From Gammaproteobacteria bacterium (GTDB lineage: Bacteria; Pseudomonadota; Gammaproteobacteria; JACCXJ01): DNA of 58,470 nt. The notes under the pieces were generated by a model. That model made no database searches and was not told the origin of the DNA. It saw only the letters and a list, made by a program, of their open reading frames with translations. Of the stretch, positions 2,372 through 18,257 are shown in pieces (the stretch's first letter is position 1; each line of letters starts with the position of its first letter). The translations under genes and the position numbers were made by a program. The stretch is from the NCBI GenBank assembly GCA_050740435.1, contig JBOIDL010000002.1, forward strand, positions 1 through 58,470. Direction: 5' to 3'.

Positions 2372-2890
2372 ATGACAGATATGGATATCGTAAAAAATTG
2401 GTACCTTGTTCACACCAAACCGAGAAAAGAAACGGTTGCCGAGAAAAACCTCGAACGCCAAGGCTACGAGGTCTATTTGCCTTTAATCTATCAACAACGC
2501 CGGCGATATGAACGCTGGGTACAGATCATCGAGCCATTGTTCCCTCGTTACCTGTTCATACACCTCCGGCCCGGCTATGACAACATGGGGCCGGTTCGCT
2601 ATACAAGCGGTGTACAGAACTTCGTGCGTTTCACAGAGGAGCCGGCTATTGTTCCCGGCGTAGTTGTTGACTCTATAAAGTGCAACGCCGATACGCGTAC
2701 CGGTCTGCATACCCAAAAGCGACTGGCGTTTCAGAGGGGCGACACCGTGATGATTGAAAAGGGGCCGCTCGCTAATCTGCAGGCGATCGTATGGGGTGAA
2801 TCGGGAGAAGAGCGCGTGATGATCCTGATTAAGATGTTGGGGCGGGAAACTGCTGTGACGGTCTCGCGGAACCTGCTAGACCTAGCTTAG
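2372..2890 (+). CDS. rfaH: RfaH-like NusG paralog (operon-specific transcription antiterminator)
   Basis: The ORF track gives 2207-2890; I trimmed it to the internal ATG at 2372 (an alternative is 2381). NWYLVHTKPRKE...EPLFPRYLFI...GVQNFVRFTEEPAIVPGVVV...GDTVMIEKGPLANLQAIV...ERVMILIKMLGRE lines up motif for motif with E. coli RfaH (SWYLLYCK, EPLFPNYLFV, GVSHFVRFGASPAIVPSAVI, GDKVIITEGAFEGFQAIF). Confidence 0.85.
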   Translation: MTDMDIVKNWYLVHTKPRKETVAEKNLERQGYEVYLPLIYQQRRRYERWVQIIEPLFPRYLFIHLRPGYDNMGPVRYTSGVQNFVRFTEEPAIVPGVVVDSIKCNADTRTGLHTQKRLAFQRGDTVMIEKGPLANLQAIVWGESGEERVMILIKMLGRETAVTVSRNLLDLA

Positions 2891-3002
2891 TTTAGGGTGT
2901 GCCTGAGGCGTTTCTTTCCGCCTCACCGTCGACGAAGTAGCTCAGAAGCGTCGACAACCTGTAGCAAAGAGCGGCTTGTTATACGAAACGCGAAGGCGTT
3001 TT

Positions 3003-3021
3003 GTAGGGCGGTAGCGTTGTT
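3003..3021 (+). promoter_or_regulatory. ops/JUMPStart-like RfaH recruitment element
   Basis: GTAGGGCGGTAGCGTTGTT. The core GGCGGTAGCGTT (3007-3018) matches the E. coli ops consensus GGCGGTAGCGTG at 11 of 12 positions. It is on the non-template strand of the downstream operon, in the leader between the rfaH-like gene and the ATG at 3235. Confidence 0.6.
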
Positions 3022-3234
3022 TCGCACCGAATTCGTTCAGAATCATTCACGGTTTCACTTGCAATCGAGCTATTTCGCCGGGCAAGTTTGAGAGAGACGG
3101 TCAGTTCCTTAGAACGCCGTTTGATCAATCCGCCCGGCCTGACGGGCATACGGTGGAAATTTGTTCCCGTCTGGATCAATCCGCCTCAAATTAACTTCCA
3201 ACCTAATGATCGGCACTCTAGGAGGAACAAGAAA

Positions 3235-6200
3235 ATGACAAGGAATCGCATCGTTCGGTTAATTAGCCTCACGGGCACGGTGTTCGTGTTTACAGTGGTG
3301 CTAATTTACGTTCTAGCACTCGTATCCGAAGTCAACGTTGCCTCGGCAAATCCCAATACAACCCTTCCAGTATCGTCAACAAGCGCGAATCACGACCGCT
3401 TTGCGTTTAGCCCTGATGGCAATTCCTTAGCAAGCGCGACAGATGATGGGCAAATCGTTTTGCTGAGTTTGCTGTCGGGTAAGCAACGTTTGATTGGACC
3501 GGGTCCGCTTGGTTCTGTCGTTGCGGACCTTGCGTTTAGCCCAGATGGCAAAACCCTGGCTTGCGTGCTTGAAGATACGATCACACTGTGGGACATGCCG
3601 TCCGGACAGGTACGCGGGATTCTAAGCGGTGCCTCTAACGGTGTGGTTACTGACCTTCTCTTTAGCCCTGATGGCGAATCCGTGGCCGGTGTTGCCGATG
3701 GCAAACAGATTTTGATTTGGGACGTAAAGTCACGCTCGCAGCGATGGATATTGTCTAGCGGCGACGCCGTCAGTCGAATCGCCTTTGCCCGGAATGCAAC
3801 TATCTTAGCCAGCAGTGGTGAGGACGAGAGAATCAGGCTATGGGATGTAACATCAGGCCAAGAACTCGTAACTCTTACTAACCGTACCGCGGTAACTGGT
3901 TTCGCGTTTAGTCCGGTGGGCATGACGCTGGCCAGCGTAGACCGGGAGGCTAACGTCAGCGTGTGGGACTTAGAGTTCGGTAATGATAGACAAATTCTAA
4001 CCGGTCAGCGTGCCCCCATCAACGGCCTTGCTTTTAGCCCCGACGGGTCCATTCTCGCGACTGGCGGAATCGACGCACGAGTCAAGCTCTTGGATGTAAC
4101 ATCCGGCGAAGAACGCTTATCCCTCTTGAGCCGGGGCGATGCCGATTTTCATGGTCTTGTATTCAGCCCGGACGGTAGGACGCTAGCCGGGGTGAGTGAT
4201 GGCAACCGGATCCTATTGTGGGAGGTGGCGAGTGGCAATCTACGCCAACGCTTTGTCGGGCATAAGGACATAATTGCCGAGATTGCTTTTAATCCGAATC
4301 GACAAGTTTTAGCGAGCGTAAGTAACGATGGGCAGGCTATAGTCTGGGACCTCGCAGGCGGGGTGAAACGGCTTGCCCACCAAATTGTGGGTTTCGGATC
4401 CGACCCGTTGGCTTTCCAGACTACCGATTTCAGTAGTAAAACCCTTAATACCGTCAACAGTTCGTCTGCTGCCGACTTGGCACCTGTTATTGATCCAGAA
4501 CTCCCAAATCAAAGCAGCGCAAGCCAGGCAGGCGCTGTCGCTGACTTGGATCTACGGGGCACTCGTAAACGAGCCCGGGCACGCAATTGGAAGGGGATCA
4601 GGGCGCTCGCCGTAAGTCCGGATGGAACACGCGTGGGAACAGCAGGCGAGGACAGCGCGGTCCGACTTTGGGATTCTGCCGGAAGAGAACTGTTCGCGCT
4701 GCAAGGACATCACGGCGCCGGTGTTACCGGCATTACGTTCACTGCGGACGGGGAACAACTGGTCAGCGTCGGTAGGGATACCGAAGTCAGTATCCTGAAT
4801 GTAGCAACCGGCGACGAGAGCAAGATTTTGTTGGGCCATGAACATCCAATCAGGACGATTGCCGCTAGCCCCGACGGTAAATTCCTAGCCAGCGCCGGTG
4901 AAGAAACGCGGATCATGGTATGGGACGTGGCAACCGGTAAACTGAGCAGAATCCTCTCCGGCCATACAGATTTCGTCAATGGGCTCGCTTTCAGCCCGGA
5001 CGGGGAACGTTTGGCTAGTGGAGGTGCGGATGGGCGTGTACTTCTATGGGATGTTGCAACCGGAAAACTGTTTAAGACGCTACTCGGTCACGCGGGCGAG
5101 GTCAACGCGGTCGCATATAGCCGAAACGGCAGGTTATTGGCTAGCGCCAGTGAAGATTTTCAAGTCCTGATGTGGGACGCTGTGACTGGAAAGCAAGTAC
5201 GCGCCCTTCGAGGACATCAGGCTGCTGTTAGAACGATTGCGTTCAGTCCGGATGGCCGGGACCTAGTGAGTTCAGGAGAAGACACGAGGATCTTAGTGTG
5301 GGATATAGCCGTTGGTAACTTGCGTAAAATCCTTCCAAGAAATACACGGTTTATCAATGCGCTCGTGTTCCACCCGGCCGGCAGTTTGATTGTCGGGGAC
5401 GAGGATGCGCAGATCACGGAATGGGCTATGGAAGGTGGGAGAAAAGTAAGAATATCGAGGCCTAAACTGCGACCGCGCGCCGGTAGATCTACACGCACCT
5501 CATCACCGCTGAGCGCTCTTACGCCTGCCGGTGGCGGCACAGACACAAATCACATTGCTACGAGGTCAATTATATCTGCGGCCCAGAGTATCGTTGGCGG
5601 GTTGTTAGATTTGTTGGTGCCTGCAGCCGCTGCGCAACTGCCCGATCCTAATCAGGGTCCAGGCGGGCCAATCCTCGTTATTACTTCCGGTTCTTCCACC
5701 TTTGGAAAATTCTATGCGGAAATATTGCGCAACGAGGGACTCAACGCCTTCGCGGTTGCCGATATTGCGACCATTAATTCGGCGACGCTAGCGAGCTACG
5801 ACGTGGTCATCCTGGCGCCTGTGGTCCTTTCGCTCGCTCAAGTCGGGATGTTCACTGACTGGGTAAGCGCGGGTGGTAATTTAATTGCCATGCGGCCTGA
5901 TCCGCAGCTCTCGGGCTTGCTCGGGATCTCCGCCGCAGGCGCTACATCGGCCAACGCTTACCTCCTTGTCGATACGAGCCAGTCGCCTGGCAGCGGGATC
6001 GTCGGCCAGACCATTCAGTTCCACGGTACGGCGGATCGGTACACACTGAACGGCGCCTCAAGCCTTGCGACACTTTACGCTGACGCGACCACAGCAACGG
6101 CGAATCCTGCGGTAACGCTGCGTAGCGTCGGGGCGAATGGCGGCCAGGCCGCGGCCTTTACTTACGACTTGGCGACATCCATCGTATACACGCGGCAGGG

Positions 6201-9200
6201 CAACCCCGCGTGGGCTGCGCAGGAACGCGATGGATTCACCCCTATCCGCTCGGACGACAAGTTCTTCGGAAACGCCACTGGAGATCCGAAGCCGGACTGG
6301 GTCGATCTGAACAAGGTAGCTATTCCGCAGGCAGACGAGCAACAGCGGCTGCTTGCAAACCTGATCCTGCACATGAACCTGGATCGGAAGCCCTTGCCGC
6401 GATTCTGGTATTTCCCTCGTGGTGAGAAGGCGGTGGTCATCATGACCGGTGACGATCACGGCAATGGGGGGACCGAAGGTCGATTCAATCAGTTTATTTC
6501 GTCGAGTCCGGCCGGCTGCTCGGTGGCCGACTGGGAGTGTGTAAGGGGCACCTCGTATGTATTTCCGAATACGCCGACCTTGACGAATGCAGAAGCCGCG
6601 GCCTTCAACGCGGCCGGCTTCGAAGTGGGTTTGCACGTTAATACTAGCTGCGCCGACTTTACACCCGCATCGCTTGAAGATTTTTATACCCAACAAATCG
6701 CTGACTGGGTTGCCAACTACTCAAGTATCCCGGTTCCGATAACGCAGCGCCACCACTGTATCGCGTGGAGCGACTGGGTAACTGGAGCGAACGTTCAGTT
6801 CAATCATGGGATCCGCCTCGACACGAGCTATTATTTTTGGCCCCCGAGCTGGGCCCTCAACCGCCCGGGGTTGTTCACCGGTTCGGGTATGCCCATGCGG
6901 TTCGCCGAGCTCAACGGTACCCTGGTCGATGTTTACAACGCCACGACGCAGATGACCGACGAGTCGGGGCAGCAATATCCGTTTACGGTTAATACGCTAT
7001 TGGACCGGGCGCTGGGTCCCGAAGGCTACTATGGGGCCTTTACCGTCAATGCGCACACGGACGTCCCGCAAATCCCGGAAGCGGACGCGGTGGTCGCTTC
7101 GGCCCTTGCCCGTAGTGTACCAGTCGTGTCGAGCCGGCAGATGCTGGCATGGCTGGATGGCCGCAACAACTCCTCGTTCGGGGCGTTCTCCTGGAACGGA
7201 AACACCCTGAGCTTTAGCGTCACCCGGGACAGCGCTGCCAACGGACTGCAAGCGCTCGTGCCGCGAGTGGTGAGCGGCGCCGTTCTTACGGGGATCACGC
7301 GTAACGGCAGTTCAATTGCATTCACGACCGAGATCATCAAAGGCGTGAGCTATGCGGTGGTTTCCGCGTTGTCGGGGACCTATGCGGCAAGCTTCGCGCC
7401 GGATACGACGCCCCCCACTGTGGTTTCTCATTCGCCGAGTGCCGGCGCCACCGGTGTTAGCCAAGCAGCGCTCGTTACCGCTACCTTTAGCGAGGATCTG
7501 AATCCAGCTACGATCGGGACCAGTACATTTGAACTACGCGGTCCCGGCAGCACATTGGTTACCGCTACGGTCACCTATAACGGCGCAACTCGAACCGCGA
7601 CGTTGGACCCAAGCTCTAATTTACTAGCCTCAACGACCTATACGGCGACCGTGAAAGGTGGCCCGACAGGGGTGAAAGATGCTGGCGGCCTTGCGATGGT
7701 CTCGGACTTCGTTTGGACTTTCACAACGGAAGCGACACCCTGCTCTAGCTCTTGCAATGGCTGGAGCAGCTCGACTACCCCGACGAATCCGTCGGCCTCC
7801 GATCCCAATGCCGTCGAGCTTGGCGTCAAGTTCCGGTCTAATTTGGACGGCTCTATCACCGGCGTTCGGTTTTATAAGGGCGGCGGGAACACCGGCACGC
7901 ATATCGGTAAACTGTGGACAGCGGCGGGGACACAGCTAGCGACGGCGACCTTTATCAACGAAACCGCTTCCGGCTGGCAGCAGGTGACCTTTGCTAGCCC
8001 CGTAGCGATCACGGCCAATACCGTTTACGTCGCTTCGTACCATGCTCCGAACGGAGGTTATGCTTTTGACAGTAACTATTTTGCGAGCAGCGGTTTTCAA
8101 AACGGCCCCTTGTATTTCCTAAGAGACGGGGAGAGCGGGGGTAATGGTGTGTACGTCTATGGGGCGGGTGGCTTCCCTACGAATACATTCCAGGCCAGCA
8201 ACTACTGGGTGGATGTGGTCTTTACGACCAGCTCCGGGGGTCCTGATACGACACCGCCGACGGTGATCACGAAATCGCCGACGGATAACGCGGCCGGCGT
8301 CAGTCCCACCACGGCGGTGACCGCGACCTTCAGCGAGCCGCTGAATCCGGCGACGGTCAACACCTCGACCTTCGAGCTGCGGACCTCAACCAACGCCCTA
8401 GTACCTGCGACCGTCAGCTACAACGCCAACACGGCAACGTTGACGCCGAGCAGTACATTAGCCGGCTCAGCAACCTATACCGCCACCGTCAAGGGCGGAG
8501 CGGCGGATCCGCGGGTAAAAGACGTCGCCGGTAACGCGCTGGCCGCGAACGTCACCTGGTCCTTCACCACCGCGGCGCCGGTAGTTTGTCCCTGTAGCGG
8601 CTGGAACAGTTCGGCTACTCCGACCAATCCATCGTTCTCAGATCCCAATTCTATCGAGGTCGGTGTCAAGTTCAGGGTAGACGTAAATGGCTTCATCAGC
8701 GGCATACGTTTCTACAAGGGAGATCTCAATACCGGCACCCACAGCGGTACCTTGTGGACTAGCGCCGGGCTGCAACTGGCGACGGCGACTTTCACCAACG
8801 AGACCGCTTCAGGCTGGCAACAGGTCAACTTTTCAAGCCCGGTGGCGGTTACCGCTAACACCGTCTATGTGGCCTCCTACCATGCACCTAATGGGAACTA
8901 TGCAGCCGATTCCTCATACTTTGCCAGTACCGGCGTCGACAACGGGCCGGTGCATCTATTAAGCGACGGTGTGAGCGGAGGCAACGGTGTTTTCGTTTAC
9001 AGCGCCAGCAGCGCTTTCCCGACCTCGAGCTTCCAAGCGACCAATTACTGGGTGGACGTGGTCTTTACGACCAGCGCGGGTTCTGACACGACGCCGCCCA
9101 CGGTGACGGCGACGACGCCTTTAAATGGTGCTACGGGCGTCAACGTGGGCACCACGGTCACCGCGACGTTTAGTGAGCCGATGGCTCCGGCGACGGTCAA

Positions 9201-10170
9201 CACCTCGACCTTCGAGCTGCGGAACTCAGCCAACGCCTTGGTAGCGGCTACGGTCAGCTACAACGCCAATACGGCAACACTGACGCCGACCAGTGCATTA
9301 GCCGGCTCAGCAACCTATACCGCCACCGTCAAGGGCGGGACGGCGGATCCGCGGGTGAAGGATGTGGCCGGCAACCCGCTCGCTTCCAACGTCACCTGGC
9401 CCTTCACCACCGCGGCGGTGCTTACGACACCGCCCATGGCGCCGGTCGGGCTTACGGCGACGCCATCGGCGAGCGGCATCACGCTCCGCTGGACCGCGAA
9501 CACCGAGGGGGACCTTGCGGGCTATCACGCCTACCGCAGCGCCGGTGGGGCCGGTTCCTTCACTCGATTGAACGGCACTCTCCTGACCGCATTGGCTAAC
9601 CCCTCCTATGAGGATACCCTTGCCCCCAACGGGACCAGCGACTATCGGGTGACCGCGGTCGATAGCTCGGGCAATGAGTCAGCGCCTTCTGCTACGACGA
9701 GTGCATCCATGACCAAGTCTAATCGGATCCTGAACCCGGGTTTTGAGCTCGATGCCAACAGCGACACCCGCCCGGACAGCTGGAACACGAATGCGGCGGT
9801 TACGCGCAGCAGTGAACTCGTGCGAAGCGGTGGCTTTGCTATGAAGCATTCGGCGGCCACCAATGTGGGCTATACGCTTACTCAAGTGGTGACGGGCCTA
9901 GCCGCGGGTACGACGTACAACTTCGCAGGCTGGGCCAACATACCGACTACCGCCGATGCGTTCACCTTAACGATTCGCGTGCGTTGGCGTAGTCTCCTCA
10001 ACACGATACTTAGGACGGACAACGTCAAGGTGTACAACGCATCCACGAACGGCTGGAATAAGGCCTTAGTGAGCTTGGTGTCACCTATCGGGACCACTAA
10101 CGCACAGGTGCAGATGGTGGTGACCAGCTTGAACGCAAGCATCTACGTCGATGACTTCGCCTTGCGTTAA
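3235..10170 (+). CDS. giant secreted or membrane-anchored multidomain protein: signal anchor, 8+7 WD40 blades, deacetylase-like core, 3 x (Big_5 Ig + DUF4082), FN3, CBM4_9-like
   Basis: The ORF track gives 3088-10170. I trimmed it to the ATG at 3235, which is preceded by GGAGGA (3221-3226). MTRNRIVRLISLTGTVFVFTVVLIYVLALV is a hydrophobic N-terminus. Fifteen repeats of the form xAFSPDG....G.D..i.lWD fall in two blocks (about 3391-4360 and 4597-5440). The core carries a TGDDHG motif. Three repeats have DTTPPTV...FSE....T (Big_5/SbsA-type Ig), each followed by VELGVKFR...GIRFYK...TGTH.G.LW...ASGWQ...NTVYVASYHAPNG...NYWVDVVF (DUF4082). An FN3 follows (LRWTANTEGDLAGYHAYRS...VTAVDSSGNES). The C-terminus is NPGFELD...IYVDDFALR. 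Confidence 0.85.
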   Translation: MTRNRIVRLISLTGTVFVFTVVLIYVLALVSEVNVASANPNTTLPVSSTSANHDRFAFSPDGNSLASATDDGQIVLLSLLSGKQRLIGPGPLGSVVADLAFSPDGKTLACVLEDTITLWDMPSGQVRGILSGASNGVVTDLLFSPDGESVAGVADGKQILIWDVKSRSQRWILSSGDAVSRIAFARNATILASSGEDERIRLWDVTSGQELVTLTNRTAVTGFAFSPVGMTLASVDREANVSVWDLEFGNDRQILTGQRAPINGLAFSPDGSILATGGIDARVKLLDVTSGEERLSLLSRGDADFHGLVFSPDGRTLAGVSDGNRILLWEVASGNLRQRFVGHKDIIAEIAFNPNRQVLASVSNDGQAIVWDLAGGVKRLAHQIVGFGSDPLAFQTTDFSSKTLNTVNSSSAADLAPVIDPELPNQSSASQAGAVADLDLRGTRKRARARNWKGIRALAVSPDGTRVGTAGEDSAVRLWDSAGRELFALQGHHGAGVTGITFTADGEQLVSVGRDTEVSILNVATGDESKILLGHEHPIRTIAASPDGKFLASAGEETRIMVWDVATGKLSRILSGHTDFVNGLAFSPDGERLASGGADGRVLLWDVATGKLFKTLLGHAGEVNAVAYSRNGRLLASASEDFQVLMWDAVTGKQVRALRGHQAAVRTIAFSPDGRDLVSSGEDTRILVWDIAVGNLRKILPRNTRFINALVFHPAGSLIVGDEDAQITEWAMEGGRKVRISRPKLRPRAGRSTRTSSPLSALTPAGGGTDTNHIATRSIISAAQSIVGGLLDLLVPAAAAQLPDPNQGPGGPILVITSGSSTFGKFYAEILRNEGLNAFAVADIATINSATLASYDVVILAPVVLSLAQVGMFTDWVSAGGNLIAMRPDPQLSGLLGISAAGATSANAYLLVDTSQSPGSGIVGQTIQFHGTADRYTLNGASSLATLYADATTATANPAVTLRSVGANGGQAAAFTYDLATSIVYTRQGNPAWAAQERDGFTPIRSDDKFFGNATGDPKPDWVDLNKVAIPQADEQQRLLANLILHMNLDRKPLPRFWYFPRGEKAVVIMTGDDHGNGGTEGRFNQFISSSPAGCSVADWECVRGTSYVFPNTPTLTNAEAAAFNAAGFEVGLHVNTSCADFTPASLEDFYTQQIADWVANYSSIPVPITQRHHCIAWSDWVTGANVQFNHGIRLDTSYYFWPPSWALNRPGLFTGSGMPMRFAELNGTLVDVYNATTQMTDESGQQYPFTVNTLLDRALGPEGYYGAFTVNAHTDVPQIPEADAVVASALARSVPVVSSRQMLAWLDGRNNSSFGAFSWNGNTLSFSVTRDSAANGLQALVPRVVSGAVLTGITRNGSSIAFTTEIIKGVSYAVVSALSGTYAASFAPDTTPPTVVSHSPSAGATGVSQAALVTATFSEDLNPATIGTSTFELRGPGSTLVTATVTYNGATRTATLDPSSNLLASTTYTATVKGGPTGVKDAGGLAMVSDFVWTFTTEATPCSSSCNGWSSSTTPTNPSASDPNAVELGVKFRSNLDGSITGVRFYKGGGNTGTHIGKLWTAAGTQLATATFINETASGWQQVTFASPVAITANTVYVASYHAPNGGYAFDSNYFASSGFQNGPLYFLRDGESGGNGVYVYGAGGFPTNTFQASNYWVDVVFTTSSGGPDTTPPTVITKSPTDNAAGVSPTTAVTATFSEPLNPATVNTSTFELRTSTNALVPATVSYNANTATLTPSSTLAGSATYTATVKGGAADPRVKDVAGNALAANVTWSFTTAAPVVCPCSGWNSSATPTNPSFSDPNSIEVGVKFRVDVNGFISGIRFYKGDLNTGTHSGTLWTSAGLQLATATFTNETASGWQQVNFSSPVAVTANTVYVASYHAPNGNYAADSSYFASTGVDNGPVHLLSDGVSGGNGVFVYSASSAFPTSSFQATNYWVDVVFTTSAGSDTTPPTVTATTPLNGATGVNVGTTVTATFSEPMAPATVNTSTFELRNSANALVAATVSYNANTATLTPTSALAGSATYTATVKGGTADPRVKDVAGNPLASNVTWPFTTAAVLTTPPMAPVGLTATPSASGITLRWTANTEGDLAGYHAYRSAGGAGSFTRLNGTLLTALANPSYEDTLAPNGTSDYRVTAVDSSGNESAPSATTSASMTKSNRILNPGFELDANSDTRPDSWNTNAAVTRSSELVRSGGFAMKHSAATNVGYTLTQVVTGLAAGTTYNFAGWANIPTTADAFTLTIRVRWRSLLNTILRTDNVKVYNASTNGWNKALVSLVSPIGTTNAQVQMVVTSLNASIYVDDFALR

Positions 10171-10283
10171 CCGGGGTGGCCGACGGAGAAGACGGCTATG
10201 CATGGACAGCGCATGTGGTAGGACTGCAAGCGCTTATGGAAAAACAACAACGCCTAAGACCGGCGATAGGATTGGAGAACGAA

Positions 10284-13200
10284 ATGGAGAACCGAATGCC
10301 CCGTAGATTTACCCACCTTGCAATGCTGTTCTGCGCCTCCCTGCTGAGTACCTATGGACCACAGGTAGCAGCGAGTTGTGCAGCCCCGGCAAACGCGATC
10401 GAGGCCGAAAACTGCCAGCTTGGCAACCTGTCGAGCGAGTGGGACATCGGCGGTGTCGGTGATCCGAGCCTCCAGGGTTTTGCTACTGAGATCAGTGTCA
10501 ATCGGGGCGCGACCGTGTTCTTCAAGATCGATGCGAATGCGACCGGCGCTTACCGTCTCGACATCTACCGCATGGGCTACTACGGTGGGAGGGGAGCTCG
10601 CAAGGTCGCTACCGTGCCGGATTCGGTTACTTTGACGCAAAACCAACCGAACTGTTTCACGAATGCGACCACAGGACTCATCGATTGCGGCAATTGGGCG
10701 GTCTCCGCTTCATGGGCCGTGCCGGCTAACGCCACGTCCGGGATCTACTTTGCGAGGGCGGTGCGTACGAGCACCGGGGGCGCCAGCCACATCGTCTTTA
10801 TCGTGCGCGACGATGCGAGCACCTCGGATGTGCTGTTCCAAACCGCGGATACGACCTGGCAGGCATATAACAATTACGGGGGTAATAGCCTCTATACCGG
10901 ATCGCCGGCCGGGCGCGCTTACAAGGTCAGCTACAATCGGCCGTTCAACACCCGCACGGTCGATAACGGCCAGGATTGGGTATTCAACGCCGAATACCCG
11001 ATGGTCCGGTGGCTGGAGGCCAATGGTTACGACGTCAGCTACTCTACCGGAGTCGACAGCGATCGCCGGGGCGCGTTGATACGCAACCATAAGCTCTTCC
11101 TGTCGGTCGGTCACGACGAATACTGGTCTAATGGACAGCTCGCAAGCGTTGAAGCGGCTCGAAACGCCGGCGTGGACTTAGGTTTTTTCAGCGGCAACGA
11201 GGTTTTTTGGAAGACCCGCTGGGAAAACAGCATCGATGGTTCTGGGACGCCGTATCGCACGCTCGTGTGTTACAAGGAGACGCACGCCAACGCCAAGATC
11301 GATCCGTTGCCCAACGTCTGGACCGGCACCTGGCGCGACCCGCGTTTCAGCCCTCCCGCGGACGGCGGCCGTCCGGAAAATGCCCTGACCGGCACGCTTT
11401 TCACGGTAAACGCCGGCGCCACGACCTCGATTCGGGTGCCGGCGGAAGACGGCAAGATGCGCTTCTGGCGCAACACCAGCATCGCAAACCTCGCGGCAGG
11501 AGCCACGGCCACCTTACCCTTTGGAACCTTGGGCTACGAATGGGACGAAGATATTGACAACGGATTCCGGCCGGCCGGCCTATTCCACATGTCGACCGCT
11601 GTGGTACCGAATGCGCCGGTGCTGTTGGACTTCGGGTCTACCTTCGGATCGGGGACGGCGACGCATCATCTGACGCTTTACCGGCACAATAGCGGCGCCC
11701 TGGTGTTCGGATCCGGTACTGTCCAGTGGTCCTGGGGGTTGGATAGTAATCACGATAACGGTAGCGCTGCAGCGGATGTACGCATGCGGCAGGCGACCGT
11801 GAATCTATTTGCGGACATGGGAGTTCAGCCGGCCACACTGCAGTCAGGCTTGGTTCCCGCGACCGCATCGACCGATACGACTGCTCCCGGCTCCACGATC
11901 TCCTCGCCAACCAACGGCTCGAACGTACCGCAGGGAAGTCCGGTGTCCATCAGCGGAACGGCAGCGGACAGCGGCGGCGGTGTCGTGGGGGGTGTCGAGG
12001 TCTCGGTCGACGGCGGAACCACGTGGTTTGCAGCCACTGGCCGCGCCAACTGGAGCTTTAGCTGGCTCCCCAGTGCATCGGGAAATGTGACGATTCGGAG
12101 CCGTGCGGTGGACGACAGCGGGAATCTCGGAACGCCGAGTGCCGGTGTTAGCGTCACGGTTGGTTCCGGACAGCCGCCGGGTAACTGCACAGGGAGTAGC
12201 GTTTGGCCTGCCACAGCAGTGCCGGCTAATCCTACGGATCCTGATACGACCCCGGTTGAGCTGGGCGTGAAGTTCAGGTCGGACGTCAATGGCTTTGTTT
12301 GTGGTATCCGGTTTTACAAGAGCAGCGCGAATACGGGCACACACGTCGGTAAGCTGTGGAGTAGCAGCGGAACCTTGCTTGGCACCGCGACCTTTGCGGG
12401 CGAGACCGCGTCGGGCTGGCAGCAAGCGGACTTCGGCACGCCGGTGGCGGTTACGGGCAATACCGTTTACGTAGCTTCCTACCATGCGCCGAATGGGCGA
12501 TATGCGGCGGATACTGGCTTCTTCGCCGCCGGCGGTGTGGACAATGCGCCGCTGCATGCATTGCAGGACGGCGTGAGCGGAGGTAATGGGGTGTATGTCT
12601 ATGGAACCGGCAGTTTTCCTTCCAGTACGTTCCAATCGACCAACTACTGGGTGGATGTGGTCTTTACGACCGCCGCGGCGCCGGACACGACGCCGCCGAC
12701 AGTGACCTCGACGACACCGGCGAGTGGTGCGACCGGCGTGAGTCCGGGGACCACGGTGACAGCGGTCTTTAGCGAGGCGATGGATGCGACCACGGTCAAC
12801 CCCTCGACCGTAGAGTTGCGGGACGCGGCCAACGGGTTAGTGACGGCGACGGTAACGTACAACGCAGCGACGCGGACGGCGACGTTGACACCAAGCAGTG
12901 TCTTGGCCAACGGGGCGACCTACACGGCGACCGTCAAAGGCGGAGCGACGGATCCCCGGGTGAAGGATGTCGCCGCGAACGCACTCGCTGCTAACCAAAC
13001 CTGGTCGTTTGCTATAGCGCCCGCTGACACGACGCCACCGACGGTGACCTCGACGACACCGGCGAGTGGTGCGACGGGCGTGAGTCCGGGGACCACGGTG
13101 ACAGCGGTCTTTAGCGAGGCGATGGATGCGACCACGGTCAACCCCTCGACCGTAGAGTTGCGGGACGCGGCCAACGGGTTAGTGACGGCGACGGTAACGT

Positions 13201-14660
13201 ACAACGCAGCGACGCGGACGGCGACGTTGACACCAAGCAGTGTCTTGGCCAACGGGGCGACCTACACGGCGACCGTCAAAGGCGGAGCGGCGGATCCCCG
13301 GGTGAAGGATGTCGCCGGTAACGCGCTCGTCGCCAACCACACGTGGTCGTTTACTACCACGACCGGCGCCACCTGTACTGGCAACACCATCTTTGCTACA
13401 TCGGCGGTGCCGGCGATTGCGGCGGATGCGGACACTTCGGCGGTGGAGGTTGGCGTGAAGTTCCGGTCGGATGCCGATGGCGTTATATGCGGCATCCGCT
13501 TCTACAAGGGCAGCACGAACACCGGCACGCATGTGGGTAAGCTGTGGAGCAACGCCGGGACGTTGCTGGCGCAGGCGACCTTTACGGCCGAGACCGCCTC
13601 GGGCTGGCAGCAGGTGAATTTTGCAAGCCCGGTAGCGGTGACGGTGAACACGGTGTATGTGGCGTCCTACCATGCGCCGAACGGACGGTATTCGCTCAAT
13701 GAGCCGTTCTTTACCGCCGGGGTTGACAACGCTCCATTGCACGCGCTGCAAGACGGAGCAAATGGTGGAAACGGCGTATATTTGTATGGGGCCGGCGGTT
13801 TCCCCGTCAACACCTTCAATTCCAGCAATTACTGGGTGGACGTGGTATTCATTCCGGGGACTGCCCCGACACTCGCGTCGATCGCGGTGACGCCCGCTAA
13901 TCCGACGATCCAAACGTCGGCAACGCAGCAGTTCATAGCCACCGGGACCTACTCAAACAATAGTACGCAGGACATCACCAGTCAGGTAACCTGGGCTTCC
14001 TCGAACACGGCAGTGGCCACCATCAATACCGCCGGATTGGCAACGGCGGGCACGGGCGCTGGCACTACGACTATCTCGGCGACCTTGGGCACCGTCTCGG
14101 GGAGCACTACGCTGACCGTGCAGACCGCTCCCCCGATCACAAGTACCGGCTTCTTGGCCCCGAGCGCCAACGCAGCGGTTACCAGCAGTGCCGGCGACAA
14201 CAACGGGTTCCAGACCACCCCGAATAACGCCTACATCGCGGATAACCAGTTTGCTGTGGATACTAATAGTGGCACGAACACCAACACGTCATGTACCAAC
14301 GCGGGCAAGGACAAGCACAACTACTTCAACTACAACTTCAATGTGCCGGGCGGGGCATCGATCAGCGGTATTGAGGTCCGCCTGGACGCGAGCGTCGATA
14401 GCACTGCCAACTCGCCTCGGATGTGTGTGCAACTCTCCTCGGATGGCGGCACAACGTGGACCACGGCCTTGAGTACGACAACCCTGACTACGACGACCGC
14501 TGCATATATCTTGGGTGGTGCGACCAATACTTGGGGGCGAACCTGGACTGCGGGTGATTTTTCCAACGCTAATTTCAGGGTTCGCGTCATCGACGTGGCT
14601 TCCTCTACAGTCCGCGACTTTTCGTTGGATAGAGTAGCGGTTCAAGTGACCTATCAGTAG
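10284..14660 (+). CDS. large secreted protein: N,N-dimethylformamidase-beta-like domain, Ig-like, DUF4082, 2 x Big_5, DUF4082, Big_2, unknown C-terminal domain
   Basis: The ORF track gives 10176-14660. I trimmed it to the ATG at 10284, which has GGAGA 5 nt upstream (an alternative ATG is at 10296). Signal peptide: MPRRFTHLAMLFCASLLSTYGPQVAAS. DMFase-beta-family motifs as I recall them: IEAENC.LGN..SEWDI, LDIYRMGYYGGRGAR, TTWQAYNNYGGNSLY, GHDEYWS, FFSGNEVFWKTRWE. There are two DUF4082 copies and a Big_2 (ASIAVTPANPTIQTSATQQFIATGTYSNNSTQDITSQVTWASSN). Confidence 0.85.
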   Translation: MENRMPRRFTHLAMLFCASLLSTYGPQVAASCAAPANAIEAENCQLGNLSSEWDIGGVGDPSLQGFATEISVNRGATVFFKIDANATGAYRLDIYRMGYYGGRGARKVATVPDSVTLTQNQPNCFTNATTGLIDCGNWAVSASWAVPANATSGIYFARAVRTSTGGASHIVFIVRDDASTSDVLFQTADTTWQAYNNYGGNSLYTGSPAGRAYKVSYNRPFNTRTVDNGQDWVFNAEYPMVRWLEANGYDVSYSTGVDSDRRGALIRNHKLFLSVGHDEYWSNGQLASVEAARNAGVDLGFFSGNEVFWKTRWENSIDGSGTPYRTLVCYKETHANAKIDPLPNVWTGTWRDPRFSPPADGGRPENALTGTLFTVNAGATTSIRVPAEDGKMRFWRNTSIANLAAGATATLPFGTLGYEWDEDIDNGFRPAGLFHMSTAVVPNAPVLLDFGSTFGSGTATHHLTLYRHNSGALVFGSGTVQWSWGLDSNHDNGSAAADVRMRQATVNLFADMGVQPATLQSGLVPATASTDTTAPGSTISSPTNGSNVPQGSPVSISGTAADSGGGVVGGVEVSVDGGTTWFAATGRANWSFSWLPSASGNVTIRSRAVDDSGNLGTPSAGVSVTVGSGQPPGNCTGSSVWPATAVPANPTDPDTTPVELGVKFRSDVNGFVCGIRFYKSSANTGTHVGKLWSSSGTLLGTATFAGETASGWQQADFGTPVAVTGNTVYVASYHAPNGRYAADTGFFAAGGVDNAPLHALQDGVSGGNGVYVYGTGSFPSSTFQSTNYWVDVVFTTAAAPDTTPPTVTSTTPASGATGVSPGTTVTAVFSEAMDATTVNPSTVELRDAANGLVTATVTYNAATRTATLTPSSVLANGATYTATVKGGATDPRVKDVAANALAANQTWSFAIAPADTTPPTVTSTTPASGATGVSPGTTVTAVFSEAMDATTVNPSTVELRDAANGLVTATVTYNAATRTATLTPSSVLANGATYTATVKGGAADPRVKDVAGNALVANHTWSFTTTTGATCTGNTIFATSAVPAIAADADTSAVEVGVKFRSDADGVICGIRFYKGSTNTGTHVGKLWSNAGTLLAQATFTAETASGWQQVNFASPVAVTVNTVYVASYHAPNGRYSLNEPFFTAGVDNAPLHALQDGANGGNGVYLYGAGGFPVNTFNSSNYWVDVVFIPGTAPTLASIAVTPANPTIQTSATQQFIATGTYSNNSTQDITSQVTWASSNTAVATINTAGLATAGTGAGTTTISATLGTVSGSTTLTVQTAPPITSTGFLAPSANAAVTSSAGDNNGFQTTPNNAYIADNQFAVDTNSGTNTNTSCTNAGKDKHNYFNYNFNVPGGASISGIEVRLDASVDSTANSPRMCVQLSSDGGTTWTTALSTTTLTTTTAAYILGGATNTWGRTWTAGDFSNANFRVRVIDVASSTVRDFSLDRVAVQVTYQ
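12684..13367 (+). repeat. tandem duplication of a 342-bp (114-aa) Big_5 Ig-domain unit inside the 10284-14660 gene
   Basis: Unit 1 starts at 12684 (gacacgacgcc...) and unit 2 at 13026. By eye there are only 4 mismatches in the first ~290 bp of each unit, and the last ~50 bp diverge more. The minus-strand shadow ORFs 12644-12910 and 12920-13252 have identical N-terminal peptides. Confidence 0.9.
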
Positions 14661-14784
14661 GGAAGGTGTGAGTGGTGACCAGATAGGGATGCATAACACG
14701 CGGGTTCTGATCCCTTGGGGATTAGAATCTGCTCGTTTCCAATAGATAAGGTTAGACCTGACAGCTTCACTACGAGAGGTACAT

Positions 14785-17718
14785 ATGCGGAGCGATCTTA
14801 GTTTAGAGTGCCACCCAGAACGAAAAGTGCCTACCGATCATCGGGCGCATGTTCGATCGCAGAATAGTCTGCGCCGGGTAAAGCCGCTTCGTTCGATTCT
14901 TGTTGTGCTCCTCGTCGGGTGCGTCGCTTTCACGCGACCTGCGATGAGCCAATCAACGGGGCTTTTGGGGGCCTATTCCTTTGACGAGGGCGTTGGTTCA
15001 ATCGCTGGCGACGCATCCGGTAATTCACACACCGGTACCGTCACGGGGGCGACCTGGACCACAGTGGGAAAGTATGGCGGTACACTTAATTTCGACGGGA
15101 CAAACGACCTTGTTACCGTCGCTGATTCCGCCGCTTTGGATCTTACAACCGGGATGACACTATCGGCTTGGGTGCATCCTACGGCCTTGAGTACCTGGCG
15201 GACGGTGCTACTCAAGGAACGCAGTGGAGGGCTCGTCTATGCACTTTACGCGAGTGACCAAGCCTCTCACCCGAACACCTACGTCAATATAGGTGGTTCT
15301 GATTTGGGGTCGACTGGTCCGACCGCGCTGACGCTCAACGGGTGGAGTAATCTCGCGGCTACCTACGACGGGTCAGTCCTACGCGTTTATATCAATGGCG
15401 TGCAGGTCAGCAGTCGGCCTGTGGCGGGTAGCCTTCTTTCCTCCACGGGAGCGCTTCGCATTGGCGGTAACAGTGTTTGGGGGGAATATTTCCAAGGCCT
15501 TATCGACGAAGTACGAATTTATGACCGCGCCTTGGCAGCGACCGAAATCCAAGCGGATATGGTCAGGCCAATAGGCTTGGCGCCGCCCCCACCGCCTCCG
15601 CCGGGCGGATCTACCGTCGGTCAGTGGTCGGATCCTGTTGAATTAGGGATGGTTGCGGTCAATATGGTGCAGCTCCATACGGGGAAGATTCTAATGTACC
15701 GCGGCGAAAATAGCGGTGGCACATCGGCCACGTTGTGGGACCCGCTTACGGGAGCGTTTAAAGCTGCCCCGGCTCCTTATAATGTCTTCTGTTCGGGCCA
15801 TTCGTCACTTGCCGATGGCCGTATCTTAGTAGTCGGCGGTCACGATAATGCCGGAGGAATTCTTGGCGCGAACGAATCGGCGATTTTCGATCCTATGACC
15901 GAGGCTTGGACATCGACGCCATCCATGGCTTACAGGCGGTGGTACCCAAGTGCCACGACCCTACCGGATGGTCGTGTGTTAGCAACCTCCGGTGGCACGA
16001 CGTGTTTTGATTGTTACGCAGACGTTCCCGAAATTTATAACCCACAAACGAATTTGTGGACGCAGCTTACCGGGGCCAAGCTAGGGTTCCCGTATTACCC
16101 GTTTATTTTCGTATTGCCGGATGGACGCATTTTAAATGCGGGGGCTGGCGAGCTGCCCGCACCAACGCGCATTTTGGACCTGGTAAGTCAACGGTGGACA
16201 ACGGTAGATGATGCGCTTATCGACGGGGGCAGCGCCGTGATGTACCGGCCAGGGAAAGTGCTCAAAGCGGGAACCGCGGCAACGACAGATGTATCCAACG
16301 ACGCGACTGCGGCTACGACGCACGTGCTCGACATGACTGCGCAATCGCCAGCATGGCGGCAGACGGCGTCCATGGCCTTCCCACGGGCGTACCACACACT
16401 GAGTGTCCTGCCTGACGGGAATGTCTTGGTAACTGGCGGGGGTGTGACCACGGAAGGCAAGGATGTGTCGGCCGCTGTGTATGAAGCGGAGCTTTGGTCG
16501 CCCACCACCGAAACATGGCAGACGATGGCGGCGATGCAGAGCCCGAGACTGTATCATTCGACAGCCCTCCTTCTTCCGGATGGTCGCGTAGTTGTCGCGG
16601 GTAGCGGTGACAGTTATGGTGGGCCGAACCAAACGACGGCCGAATTTTATTCGCCCCCATACCTTTTTAAGGGGGACCGGCCCGTAATTGCATCGGCCCC
16701 TTCACAGGTCGCTTATGCCGACGGATTTACAGTAAGTCTCGTCGATACCTCGACGATTAAGTCGGTGGCACTGGTGCGGCCCGGGGCCGTTACGCACCAA
16801 TTCGACGAGAATCAGCGCTATCTGAGCCTCGGGTTTCAGCAGAACGCTAACACCTTGAGCGTGGACGCGCCCGGAAACGGAAACCTTGCTCCGCCCGGCT
16901 ACTATATGCTTTTCGTGCTGAACGAGGCTGGCGTGCCGTCGGTAGCGTCTTGGATCCGGATGCTGCCGGCAACGGCGGATACAACGCCTCCCGAGCAGCC
17001 TTCTGGCCTTACCGGTACATCGTCCAATTCCGGTGTGTTCCTCAATTGGACCGCCAATACGGAAGCAGATCTTGCGGGCTACGATGTGTATCGGGGACCG
17101 AACGGCAGTGGATCGTTTACGCGTTTAAATAATGCTCTTGTTACCAACGCACAGTTCGACGATACGCTCGCGCCAAATGGGATCCTTGACTACACTGTGA
17201 CAGCAGTGGATAGGGACGGGAACGAATCCCCACAGGCAACACCGGCGGTCACTGTTACGATGGCAAAGACGAATCGCGTTTTGAATCCTGGATTTGAGCT
17301 GGATGCGAATAATAACACCCAGCCTGATAACTGGAGCGCAAGCACCCGGTTCACGCACAGTAACGTGTTGGCACGCAGCGGTACATACAGTGGCCGGCAT
17401 CTCGCCACGAACAATCCGAACTACACGATTACCCAGGTCGTGACTGGTTTGACCGCAACGACGTACACCTTTGCAGGCTGGGTAAACATACCCGCCACAG
17501 CGGATGCGTTCACTTTGACAGTTCGCGTGCGGTGGCGTAACGCCTCCAATGCAATACTTAGGAGGGACAACGTCAAGGTTTATACGGCATCCACGTCCAA
17601 GTGGGATAAAGCGCTACGGAATATGGTAGCGCCCAGCGGGACATCCAACGCCCAGGTGCAGATGGTGGTCAGCAGCCTCAACGCCACCATCTACGTCGAT
17701 GATTTCGCCCTGCGGTGA
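14785..17718 (+). CDS. secreted LamG + galactose-oxidase/glyoxal-oxidase-type copper radical oxidase (kelch propeller + DUF1929) + FN3 + CBM4_9-like
   Basis: ATG at 14785 with GAGAGG at 14774-14779. N-terminal hydrophobic signal: [18 protein letters not shown]. LamG/Laminin_G_3: GNSHTGTV...[10 protein letters not shown]...[27 protein letters not shown]. Poly-Pro linker. Oxidase motifs: FCSGHS (Cys336, tgt 15790-15792), RRWYPSA (Tyr387, 15943-15945), PRLYHST (Tyr590-His591, 16552-16557) and [12 protein letters not shown] (His671, 16795-16797). The C-terminal 150 aa are close to the C-terminus of the 3235-10170 protein. Confidence 0.85.
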
Positions 17719-17771
17719 TCTATGCGCGTAAGATCAGGAATACAAGTACCTGGCCCGTCAGCTCTGTACCA

Positions 17772-18257
17772 ATGATCGCACACGACGTTCAGCTCGGCGA
17801 AGGTGTCGTGATACATCATCCCGATCTTGTGAACCTGTACGGCTGCCGAATCGGACCGGGGACGAAGATCGGCAGTTTTGTCGAGATACAAAAAGGCGCG
17901 TCTGTCGGCGCTAGATGCAAGATATCTAGTCACACCTTCATTTGCGCGGGCGTAGACATCGAAGACGGGGTATTTATCGGCCATGGTGTCATGTTTACCA
18001 ATGATATCTATCCACGGGCCGTTAATCCCGGGGGTGGCCTACTAACGGACGCCGATTGGGAAGTGATTCGTACACGAATAAAGACACATGCTGCGATAGG
18101 TAGCAATGCCACTATTCTGGCTGGGGTTACCATAGGAGAAGGATCTCTCGTGGGCGCCGGCGCAGTTGTCACCCGCGATGTGCCAGATCATGCCATCGTA
18201 GCCGGTGTACCCGCGAAGGTCATTGGCGATACTCGAAAAACCAAGCAGCTCGCATGA
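17772..18257 (+). CDS. hexapeptide-repeat (left-handed beta-helix) sugar N-acetyltransferase, WbpD/WlbB-like
   Basis: The ORF track gives 17715-18257; I trimmed it to the ATG at 17772. Repeated [LIV]-G-x-x-x-x hexads are present ([48 protein letters not shown]), and the C-terminus is [10 protein letters not shown]. It is adjacent to the Gfo/Idh/MocA and DegT genes. Confidence 0.8.

Follow-up and report, generated by a model that had tools for sequence, protein, structure and literature searches.

Giant exported proteins with predicted N-deacylase heads in a Wzx/Wzy-type polysaccharide locus of a gammaproteobacterium

Why should a polysaccharide gene cluster begin with two genes for giant exported proteins? 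The question is raised by a stretch of 58,470 nt from a Gammaproteobacteria bacterium (JACCXJ01; assembly GCA_050740435.1, contig JBOIDL010000002.1, positions 1-58,470), hereafter called the window, in which an rfaH-like gene is followed by the genes of giant 1 and giant 2, the gene of a LamG copper radical oxidase, and a long series of genes for sugar synthesis and glycan assembly (Table 1). The original prediction took the first of these genes for an RfaH-driven exoprotein system, encoded next to, not inside, the sugar-biosynthesis genes, and binding and remodelling the polysaccharide of the adjacent cluster. The co-directional block was found as it had been described, with gaps of 113 nt between giant 1 and giant 2 and of 124 nt between giant 2 and the oxidase, and the start of the Hexapep acetyltransferase gene that follows overlaps the oxidase stop codon by 4 nt. 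In the map of open reading frames (ORFs) of the window, every large ORF between 2372 and 43096 lies on the + strand, and the giants are co-directional with the whole sugar cluster. The block is best explained as the promoter-proximal part of one co-directional Wzx/Wzy-type polysaccharide operon of ~40 kb. The giants belong inside the glycan pathway, not beside it, because the commonest neighbours of their relatives are the diacetamido-sugar genes of the window itself. With slightly more confidence than doubt, we propose that the exported heads encoded by this operon form an N-deacylase pair acting on the di-N-acetylated amino sugars made by the same operon, with the oxidase as an extra modifier and the whole under RfaH/ops control.

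Loci encoding the core of giant 1 were collected from a scan of one genome per species, which found at least 592 of them, and the best 80 were taken with 10-kb flanks. De novo clustering of the neighbouring genes in 82 loci gave DegT (27 loci), WbpB-like (21), SDR (17), NeuD-type acetyltransferase (17), priming transferase (16) and Hexapep (16) as the six commonest clusters, and these are the window's own genes at 17715-27127. The loci that bear this cassette come from Methylococcales, Competibacteraceae, Burkholderiales, Cyanobacteria, Chloroflexi, Acidobacteria, Geobacter and an actinobacterial metagenome-assembled genome (MAG). In Methylococcales the giant stands between the priming transferase and the Hexapep or WbpB-like genes, an arrangement at odds with a position outside the sugar genes, and in at least 11 loci the Hexapep gene starts no more than ~300 nt after the stop codon of the giant. 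Carriers of the core that are in culture include Methylobacter tundripaludum SV96 (L017), Rhizobacter sp. Root404 (L077), Azohydromonas australica DSM 1124 (L004, L036) and Nostoc sp. NIES-4103. By our own estimate, chance alone would bring a single-copy gene to within 20 kb of a given point in well under 1% of genomes. The module is thus linked genetically with genes for di-N-acetylated amino sugars, namely the WlbB/WbpD-, WbpB- and WbpE-like genes, the PglD/E/F-like genes and the priming transferase gene.

Giant 1 consists of an N-terminal hydrophobic segment, two WD40 propellers that span ~700 aa at the N-terminus, a core of ~590 aa, the array Big_5-DUF4082-Big_5-DUF4082-Big_5, an fn3 domain and a CBM_4_9-like tail. 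The propellers had been overlooked in the original prediction. In Gammaproteobacteria, Cyanobacteria and Chloroflexi the WD40 part is fused to the core, and in Burkholderiales loci a WD40 match was found just upstream of, and outside, the core-bearing ORF. The core had been described as deacetylase-like, a description that holds for its predicted fold and finds no counterpart in sequence families: neither single-sequence nor profile searches returned a Pfam, NCBIfam or PDB sequence match for the 590 aa, and the GATase1-like N-terminal part gave weak matches to ThuA and DUF4350 only. By sequence, the core does not qualify as a member of CE4.

The AlphaFold2 (AF2) model of the core, built from an input of 34 sequences (pLDDT 93, pTM 0.94), shows a predicted GATase1/ThuA-like domain, followed by a CE4/PelA/NDST-like deacetylase barrel and a beta-sandwich. 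When the model was compared with the PDB by Foldseek, the first ~200 residues matched the middle domains of GH42 enzymes and IFT52, a GATase1-like fold. The full-length core matched the human NDST1 N-deacetylase (9f6z, 1.7e-8) and PelA (9cgy, 5.7e-8, TMq 0.40), and its barrel matched the CE4 deacetylase 3rxz (E 7e-7, TMt 0.54). The distorted beta/alpha barrel of the NodB type is present in the model, and at the level of the predicted fold the core can be accepted as deacetylase-like. Its alignment (A1; n=34 sequences, drawn, according to the names in the sources, from Cyanobacteria, Burkholderiales, Acidobacteria, Chloroflexi, Geobacteraceae and Actinobacteria) contains 116 invariant columns. 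Among the invariant residues are D272-D273-H274, E329/H333, R371-x-H373, D395 and H473-x-D475, which follow one another in the order of the CE4 motifs. For the core family, an exhaustive search returned 3281 representative clusters when the limit was E <= 1e-3, and 1481 when it was E <= 1e-30. The close homologues number more than 3000 and carry in the sources only the name 'DUF4082 domain-containing protein'. Identity in the core amounts to 60-70% between members from Cyanobacteria, Beta- and Gammaproteobacteria, Actinobacteria, Chloroflexi and Acidobacteria, and the core occurs at varied positions in proteins of up to 3868 aa.

Giant 2 carries a signal peptide, a DMFA2_C head, Big_7, DUF4082, two copies of Big_5, a second DUF4082, Big_2 and a C-terminal domain of 174 aa. 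The dimethylformamidase (DMFase)-like domain recognised earlier was borne out: the head matches Pfam DMFA2_C (PF20254) at 3.4e-105, with 353 bits against a cut-off of 27, over profile positions 2-373 of 374. A profile of its homologues (n=26, from several phyla, 62-79% identical) matched the N-acetyl-(R)-beta-phenylalanine acylase 8i5a (4e-15) and the large subunit of DMFase 6lvb (3e-6). In DMFase, Y399, Y440 and E521 bind Fe(III), H519 lies adjacent to them, and the variants Y440A and E521A are inactive (PMC7686228). Y399, Y440, E521 and H519 align with Y171, Y180, E255 and H253 of the head, respectively; Y171, E255 and H253 are invariant, and Y180 is found in at least 90% of the 26 sequences. 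As judged from these alignments, the head of giant 2 is a homologue of DMFase and of N-acetyl-amine acylase in which the 2-Tyr-1-carboxylate iron site is conserved. The two characterised relatives with a DMFA2_C domain are both amide hydrolases, one of which takes off an N-acetyl group.

The core of giant 1 and the DMFA2_C head were encoded together in one ORF in 38 of 84 loci and in separate neighbouring genes in a further 16, and the two were not both present in the other 30. Their repeated fusion in one ORF, which we grade as strong evidence, indicates that the two heads act jointly; in the window they are split between two genes. The conserved unit is therefore this pair of deacylase-like heads and not the three-protein kit that had been described, since the third protein, the oxidase, is an indel that is missing from the closest relative of the window.

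That relative (L006), an uncultured gammaproteobacterial MAG, is the closest among the sampled loci; it is colinear with the window, with 82-93% DNA identity over the main blocks, from upstream of rfaH into the WbpB-like gene. Its rfaH orthologue is 92% identical to that of the window and stands at the equivalent position. The identification of the window's gene as rfaH-like was upheld: the product matches Pfam NusG at 3e-20 and reaches 150.5 bits in the RfaH equivalog model TIGR01955 of NCBIfam (cut-off 144.5), as against 50 bits in the NusG equivalog (cut-off 135.7), and thus scores as RfaH, not NusG. The operon on which an RfaH acts carries an ops element (GGCGGTAGnnTG) in its leader, on the non-template strand, and such an element was found here. 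As earlier noted, an ops-like site is present: GGCGGTAGCGTT at 3007-3018 on the + strand agrees with the ops consensus GGCGGTAGCGTG at 11 of 12 positions. The 11-mer GGCGGTAGCGT occurs once in the 58,470-nt window, where ~0.03 copies would be expected by chance according to our arithmetic; when two mismatches to ops were allowed, 56 sites were obtained against 60 expected, which is no better than chance. Three related MAGs share the conserved ops block in their orthologous leaders: L006, L007 (twice) and L010. In L006 it is identical to that of the window, and in L007 and L010 the perfect ops GGCGGTAGCGTG lies upstream of the giant; in all four leaders of these relatives it forms part of a conserved block ...GTTTTG(C/T)AGGGCGGTAGCGT....

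The Rfam JUMPstart model scored 18.6 bits on the ops region, under the gathering score of 35, and because of this score we make no claim to a full JUMPstart hairpin. When 1500-20100 was scanned for terminators and promoters, the results were at or below shuffle expectation, terminator-like hairpins were not enriched, and the scans speak neither for nor against co-transcription. The best-supported reading is that rfaH and ops would govern one very long glycan operon, a dependence on RfaH that we infer from the regulator gene and the leader. The ops site heads the entire ~40-kb operon, and an RfaH-driven exoprotein system as a unit of its own, as originally proposed, does not emerge. In L007 the leader segment with ops is duplicated (6786 and 7167), the two nearly identical copies being spaced by ~380 bp upstream of a 2906-aa fused giant.

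A co-occurrence of the giants, the LamG-oxidase and RfaH next to Wzx/Wzy loci had been put forward as a test. Sugar genes are the commonest neighbours of the giants. An adjacent rfaH as a general rule was rejected, tblastn at E <= 0.01 finding such a gene only in L006 among the sampled loci; likewise, the oxidase as a conserved third member was rejected, for among the sampled giant loci it was found only in the window and in L028. The adjacent rfaH and the oxidase are lineage-specific extras.

The oxidase itself was correctly recognised as a copper radical oxidase. Its domains are Laminin_G_3, Glyoxal_oxid_N, Kelch_6 and GO-like_E_set (9e-28), and its best PDB match is Streptomyces GlxA (4unm, E 6e-66). 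All copper ligands of GlxA are conserved: the Cys, Trp-Tyr, Tyr-His and last His are identical in the two proteins (FCSGHS, RWYPS, LYHS, VTHQ). In GlxA these residues are C121, W288-Y289, Y501-H502 and H589, a numbering that agrees with the chain positions plus an offset of 30. The oxidase was considered as a GlxA orthologue, and this was ruled out by its score in the GlxA equivalog (279 bits, cut-off 800) and by a missing region, GlxA chain residues ~110-232 having no counterpart. No cellulose-synthase-like (CslA-type) gene is adjacent to the oxidase in the window.

In the colinear L006 the oxidase gene is absent, window position 14685 joining L006 at 19037 and window position 17767 joining it at 19204. 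The oxidase looks assembled from local modules, because it shares 64% identity with giant 1 in the 250 aa of the tail, and its LamG is 52% identical to the LamG of the PKD-LamG proteins encoded further along the window. The architecture is widespread, with 2247 LamG-oxidase matches at E <= 1e-20, and in all four contexts sampled the homologues lie within exopolysaccharide (EPS) clusters. In one of the loci (L087), a LamG-oxidase-Big_5-DUF4082 protein is encoded directly upstream of Hexapep, WbpB-like, DegT, acetyltransferase, SDR and DegT genes. That a copper radical oxidase can work together with a glycan synthase has a precedent in the GlxA-CslA pair (PMC11022532, PMC4736821).

Two further observations concern giant 2. 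Its last 174 aa contain a BNR-like SSDGGTTW motif and have no family match, and the same domain recurs at the C-terminus of fused giants in L003, L012, L014-L017, L040, L047, L058 and L063. In L006, giant 2 holds a LamG domain (16462-17073) that is 59% identical to the LamG of the oxidase, whereas giant 2 of the window is without LamG; domain shuffling among these genes is therefore taken to be rapid.

Taken together, the following course of events is proposed. RfaH, encoded directly upstream and acting at the ops site of the leader, would keep the long operon transcribed. The conserved heart would consist of two enzymes, the first comprising WD40 propellers, a GATase1-like domain with a CE4/PelA/NDST-like deacetylase and then (Big_5-DUF4082)n, and the second comprising a DMFase/N-acetyl-amine acylase-like amidohydrolase with a 2-Tyr-1-Glu iron site and then (Ig-DUF4082)n. 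After the repeat unit or the polymer has been flipped out of the cytoplasm, both heads would strip N-acyl groups from it and expose amines, a deacylation comparable to that carried out by PelA, PgaB, IcaB and NDST on their own polymers. The DUF4082 beta-sandwiches and Ig spacers may hold or reach the polymer, and the WD40 propellers may attach the enzyme to partners in the envelope. The LamG copper radical oxidase would be a lineage-specific accessory third head that oxidises primary alcohols on the same polymer. What the sequences show is which genes and domains are present, that the catalytic residues are conserved, and how the genes are fused and ordered; it is from these that we infer the substrate, the chemistry and the cellular location of the module. 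That the polymer of the adjacent cluster is remodelled, as first suggested, has comparative support in the invariance of catalytic residues, the sugar-gene neighbours and the occurrence of the oxidase in EPS clusters; the framing of the remodelling enzymes as a separate kit was given up.

Several points weigh against this proposal. The best 80 of at least 592 matches form a sample biased towards close relatives. About two thirds of the loci show no sugar cassette within 10 kb, and 30 of the 84 show no DMFA2_C, some of these contigs being truncated; the core genes of Azohydromonas adjoin CRISPR and transposase genes. The deacetylase assignment rests on fold likeness at modest TM scores (0.3-0.55), none of 34 members of the core family matched Polysacc_deac_1 at E <= 1, and motif 2 of the core reads Glu-x-x-x-His instead of the metal-binding His-x-x-x-His. 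No candidate for the small subunit of DMFase was noticed in the window, where no search with the DMFase alpha sequence was made. No route across the outer membrane is evident in the window. Position 12 of the window's ops is T where the consensus has G, and the confinement of an adjacent rfaH to L006 among the sampled loci counts on the same side. Finally, a literature search returned essentially nothing on DUF4082, which is mentioned only in passing in two papers.

How far the heads would travel bears on a variant of this proposal, the most plausible of the alternatives and in our view still unlikely, in which deacylation is a periplasmic maturation step needed for export, as with PelA for Pel and PgaB for poly-N-acetylglucosamine (PNAG), and giant 1 is anchored in the inner membrane. 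The three proteins of the block had been presented as secreted, with sizes (~2300, ~1460 and 977 aa) that agree with those found (2311, ~1454 and 977 aa). Secretion is supported as far as N-terminal export signals; these indicate export from the cytoplasm, and a periplasmic site fits them as well as the extracellular one first assumed. In giant 1 and in every WD40-bearing homologue checked, a single hydrophobic segment stands at the N-terminus before the propellers, and in homologues without WD40 it directly precedes the core. As this segment comes first in the protein, the whole of giant 1 is predicted to leave the cytoplasm. A second membrane span at the WD40-core junction was considered and rejected; the hydrophobic stretch is treated as a linker because it is borderline (1.66) and was detected in no homologue. 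The N-terminal segment of giant 1 is long (Kyte-Doolittle value of 2.55 in a 19-residue window) and resembles a signal anchor rather than a cleavable peptide, the best full-length structural matches of the core are PelA and NDST, and the window encodes no secretion system for the giants, all of which would suit a periplasmic enzyme. On the other hand, giant 2 and the oxidase have ordinary signal peptides, and series of Ig, fn3 and CBM-like modules are met with more typically in proteins of the cell surface or the medium.

A second alternative is that the giants are structural surface proteins (an adhesin, an S-layer-like protein or a matrix scaffold) to which the glycan is attached or which anchor it, for example by O-glycosylation of the Thr/Ser/Pro-rich linkers with a diNAcBac-like priming sugar as in Pgl, the heads serving for binding only. 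Hidden Markov model (HMM) searches confirmed DUF4082, Big_5 and LamG of the domain kit that had been listed and added Big_7 and Big_2; fn3 and the CBM-like tail proved weak (fn3 E 0.002 and CBM_4_9 E 0.11 in giant 1). The five DUF4082 copies counted earlier were reduced to four canonical ones, two in each giant. Those of giant 1 match Pfam at 4.7e-106 over two stretches and score 250 and 254 bits with a custom HMM. An AF2 model of DUF4082, for which the window copies and database proteins served as input, is a beta-sandwich (pLDDT 96) that comes closest in fold to PHR domains, to phage baseplate proteins and to a lectin-like domain in Cwp84 (TM ~0.5). Such a predicted fold suits a binding module.

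A structural role would accord with the large Ig-like (Big_5, Big_2, Big_7), fn3 and beta-sandwich arrays with TTPP-rich linkers, with the PHR-like or lectin-like DUF4082 fold, which shows no catalytic signature, and with the make-up of the cluster, in which DegT and a NeuD/PglD-like acetyltransferase accompany a PglC-like priming transferase. A further protein of the cluster matches Wzy_C weakly (E 0.0085), a domain that O-oligosaccharyltransferases have as well. We nevertheless consider this reading improbable: the heads are 60-78% identical across phyla, the Y/Y/E/H metal-site residues of giant 2 are invariant or nearly so, and the core has its 116 invariant positions. Such a pattern of invariant residues is typical of enzymes, and for this reason the heads are regarded as enzymes rather than scaffolds. 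The repeated fusion of the two heads and the presence of Wza and Wzc, which point to a polymer export pathway, also argue against a scaffold.

A third alternative gives the enzymes substrates that are foreign or have nothing to do with the operon (chitin, peptidoglycan, xenobiotic amides, the matrix of a competitor), their place in the operon being an accident of recombination in a variable locus. It would agree with the small amides cleaved by characterised DMFA2_C relatives (dimethylformamide, N-acetyl-beta-phenylalanine), with many homologues away from sugar genes (e.g., in Azohydromonas and several Nostoc loci) and with the scars of mobile elements and domain shuffling at the locus (a DDE_3 fragment, the oxidase indel), and is slightly less probable again, given the identical six sugar genes as commonest neighbours across seven phylum-level groups, the closely following Hexapep gene, the Methylococcales arrangement and an oxidase-DUF4082 fusion that occupies the equivalent slot in an independent contig. 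The proposal of an N-deacylase pair acting on the operon's own sugars is accordingly retained. A bolder extension of it, which we rate as a long shot, is a covalent curing of the matrix, in which the deacylases unmask primary amines on the di-N-acetylated sugars, the oxidase turns C6 alcohols of neighbouring residues into aldehydes, and Schiff-base cross-links gel the secreted polymer. If this were true, giant 2 and its relatives would be the first members of the 2-Tyr-1-carboxylate iron amidohydrolase fold to act on a glycan. The core would then represent a new family of the carbohydrate-esterase-like kind, and in DUF4082 a new type of carbohydrate-binding module, directed to diacetamido sugars, would have been recognised.

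Table 1. Features of the 58,470-nt window, with positions, strand and basis of assignment.
Feature	Position	Strand	Basis or remark
rfaH, NusG paralogue, predicted operon-specific antiterminator	2372..2890	+	Pfam NusG, TIGR01955
ops-like/JUMPstart-like element	2994..3018; core GGCGGTAGCGT 3007-3017	+	within giant 1 leader (344 nt)
Giant 1, 2311 aa	3235..10170	+	ATG preceded by AGGAGG Shine-Dalgarno site
Giant 1, WD40 beta-propellers x2	3373..5427	+	Pfam WD40 3e-91, many propeller families
Giant 1, putative catalytic core, 590 aa	5638..7407	+	predicted fold; no sequence-family annotation
Giant 1, DUF4082 copies 1 and 2	7747-8226, 8587-9066	+	Pfam DUF4082; Big_5 between copies
Giant 1, fn3 + CBM_4_9-like tail	9388..10170	+	weak HMM matches
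Giant 2, 1458 or 1454 aa	10284 or 10296..14660	+	alternative starts
Giant 2, DMFase/acylase-like head	10356-11855	+	Pfam DMFA2_C
Giant 2, DUF4082 copies	12189-12668, 13377-13856	+	Pfam DUF4082
Giant 2, C-terminal domain, last 174 aa	14136-14657	+	conserved, no family match
LamG copper radical oxidase, 977 aa	14785..17718	+	Pfam + PDB matches
Oxidase, LamG	15094-15552	+	
Oxidase, catalytic propeller + E-set	~15625-16974	+	
Oxidase, common tail	16981-17715	+	
Hexapep left-handed beta-helix N-acetyltransferase	17715..18257	+	Hexapep 1e-21
Diacetamido-sugar cassette	18842..27127	+	family matches + neighbour clustering
WbpB-like 3-dehydrogenase	18842-19918	+	
DegT (first)	20036-21136	+	
NeuD/PglD-like acetyltransferase	21295-21930	+	
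Flavin-reductase fusion	22027-23430	+	
SDR	23570-24574	+	
DegT (second)	24671-25855	+	
Priming phosphoglycosyl transferase	25925-27127	+	Bac_transf
Remaining glycan operon: RmlA/C/D/B, Wzx, GT2 + GT4 glycosyltransferases, two AsnB-type amidotransferases	27175..43096	+	
Wzx	30874-32493	+	
Two PKD x2 + LamG exported paralogues	49615..53961	-	PKD_4, Laminin_G_3
c-di-GMP-I riboswitch	54034..54125	-	Rfam RF01051
Wza-like Poly_export, XrtA-type chain-length determinant, tyrosine autokinase	54576..57906	+	Pfam; TIGR03007

The acetyltransferase that had been counted with the exoproteins is present at the expected place; it is a sugar-pathway enzyme and not a part of an exoprotein kit. Its best PDB relatives are 3-amino-sugar N-acetyltransferases: 3mqg (which we take to be WlbB), QdtC 3fs8, the WxcM-like 4mzu, and 7s43. 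By homology it is a sugar 3-N-acetyltransferase of the WlbB or QdtC type and the first gene of the sugar pathway. A 2,3-diacetamido sugar is classically made by Hexapep, WbpB-like and DegT enzymes acting together, as in the WbpB/WbpE/WbpD and WlbA/WlbC/WlbB pathways. Within the cassette, the 467-aa protein encoded at 22027-23430 (+) has an unannotated N-terminal part of 300 aa fused to a flavin-reductase domain, and homologues share this context in L012 and L034.

A priming transferase (Bac_transf), Wzx, a Wza-like protein (Poly_export) and a chain-length determinant (380 bits in the XrtA-system equivalog TIGR03007, cut-off 278.85) give the locus the components of a Wzx/Wzy-dependent EPS locus of the XrtA/PEP-CTERM class; the evidence for Wzy is a weak Wzy_C match only. 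In addition to the chain-length determinant, which with the kinase is encoded at 55399-57906 (+), this kinase and the AsnB-type genes lean towards the XrtA/PEP-CTERM type. No exosortase was found in the window, and the exoproteins carry no PEP-CTERM or other C-terminal sorting signal. The Wzy_C match (E 0.0085) belongs to a 453-aa membrane protein (45152-46513, +), next to which a 475-aa protein with a signal peptide and no family match is encoded (46515-47942, -). The two are candidates for the polymerase or ligase and for a polymer-processing enzyme. The distal cluster shows signs of decay or of assembly error: an SDR/epimerase is split into two ORFs (32589-33023 and 33144-33623), and the regions 32589-34107 and 43754-44086 contain a DUF354 fragment (profile positions 3-99 of 349 only) and a DDE_3 transposase fragment.

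On the far side of the cluster, two further LamG/DUF4082-like exoproteins had been reported at 49615-53961. LamG was recovered in both, together with two PKD domains each, and the DUF4082 likeness was found to be partial. The two proteins are exported and 67% identical to each other, and their C-terminal domain, a divergent DUF4082-like one, scored 18 bits with the custom DUF4082 HMM over profile positions 26-111. The first PKD-LamG gene (51961-53961, -), which diverges from the Wza-like gene, is preceded by a cyclic di-GMP (c-di-GMP)-I riboswitch (RF01051; 80 bits, gathering score 35; E 3.7e-14) placed ~73 nt ahead of its ATG. This riboswitch probably controls the distal PKD-LamG genes independently of RfaH. 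In a further MAG (L005, 26-118, +), the clan-related c-di-GMP-I-GGC riboswitch precedes a Big_2/PKD/DUF4082 gene beside Poly_export. Because of the riboswitches in the window and in L005, the smaller DUF4082-type exoproteins can be tied to biofilm signalling.

When set beside known systems, the proposed deacylases resemble PelA (Pel), PgaB/IcaB (PNAG) and NDST1 (heparan sulfate) in that the enzyme would act outside the cytoplasm and is encoded with the synthesis genes, the known bacterial ones within EPS operons. Partial N-deacetylation makes Pel, PNAG and related polymers cationic and adhesive, and this gives a functional biofilm matrix. PelA (9cgy), NDST1 (9f6z/8cd0) and the CE4 enzyme 3rxz are matches of the core model, which is built of several domains, a deacetylase barrel standing between a Rossmann or GATase1-like domain and a beta-sandwich. 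The core differs from PelA, PgaB and NDST1 in having no detectable sequence similarity to them and no Polysacc_deac_1 match, and giant 1 differs in its WD40 propellers, its DUF4082/Big_5 arrays and its coupling or fusion to an unrelated second amidohydrolase. The pathway also differs, being of the Wzx/Wzy type with di-N-acetylated sugars and not a synthase-dependent one for a homopolymer. The large subunit of DMFase and N-acetyl-(R)-beta-phenylalanine acylase share with the head of giant 2 the DMFA2_C domain, the Tyr/Tyr/Glu ligands of Fe(III) and a nearby His. The known members are cytoplasmic and act on small molecules, and DMFase needs its small subunit; by contrast, giant 2 is exported, has Ig/DUF4082 arrays behind the head, is often fused to the deacetylase-like domain and is encoded in a glycan operon.

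The oxidase resembles Streptomyces GlxA (of the GlxA-CslA pair), a radical copper oxidase required for an apical glycan, and fungal galactose oxidase (AA5) in its kelch propeller with E-set and in the Cys-Tyr, Tyr-His and His ligands. In both cases the oxidase gene stands with genes of glycan synthesis (PMC11022532 for GlxA-CslA). The oxidase of the window differs from GlxA in its N-terminal LamG, its fn3/CBM-like tail, the lack of an adjacent CslA-type synthase and its Gram-negative host. As for regulation, the RfaH and ops/JUMPstart system of enterobacterial lipopolysaccharide, capsule and hly operons likewise combines an RfaH-grade NusG paralogue with ops in the leader of a long polysaccharide operon, and UpxY, encoded at the head of each Bacteroides capsule locus, has the regulator gene directly upstream of the presumed target, as in the window. 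The window departs from the enterobacterial arrangement in that exoenzyme genes of 7 kb and 4.4 kb come first after ops, in the T at ops position 12, and in a JUMPstart score below threshold. EPS operons with a deacetylase of their own (PelA, PgaB, IcaB), the GlxA-CslA pair and control of the RfaH/UpxY type are thus already known. What is new is a widespread unannotated core together with a DMFase-type iron amidohydrolase in a glycan context, their recurrent fusion, and the link to diacetamido sugars. A literature search returned no description of such a system and nothing relevant linking DMFase to polysaccharides.

Beyond this locus, a far larger family of probable glycan deacylases, as yet unstudied, comes into view, whose core is tied to the pathways of 2,3- and 2,4-diacetamido sugars and is regularly fused to a type of iron amidohydrolase otherwise known only from the breakdown of xenobiotics and small amides. 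Among its hosts are methanotrophs and the Competibacteraceae, which form flocs and granules; in such hosts aggregation is governed by the chemistry of the EPS. DUF4082 and DMFA2_C are thereby given a testable biological context, and cultured strains that carry these genes exist.

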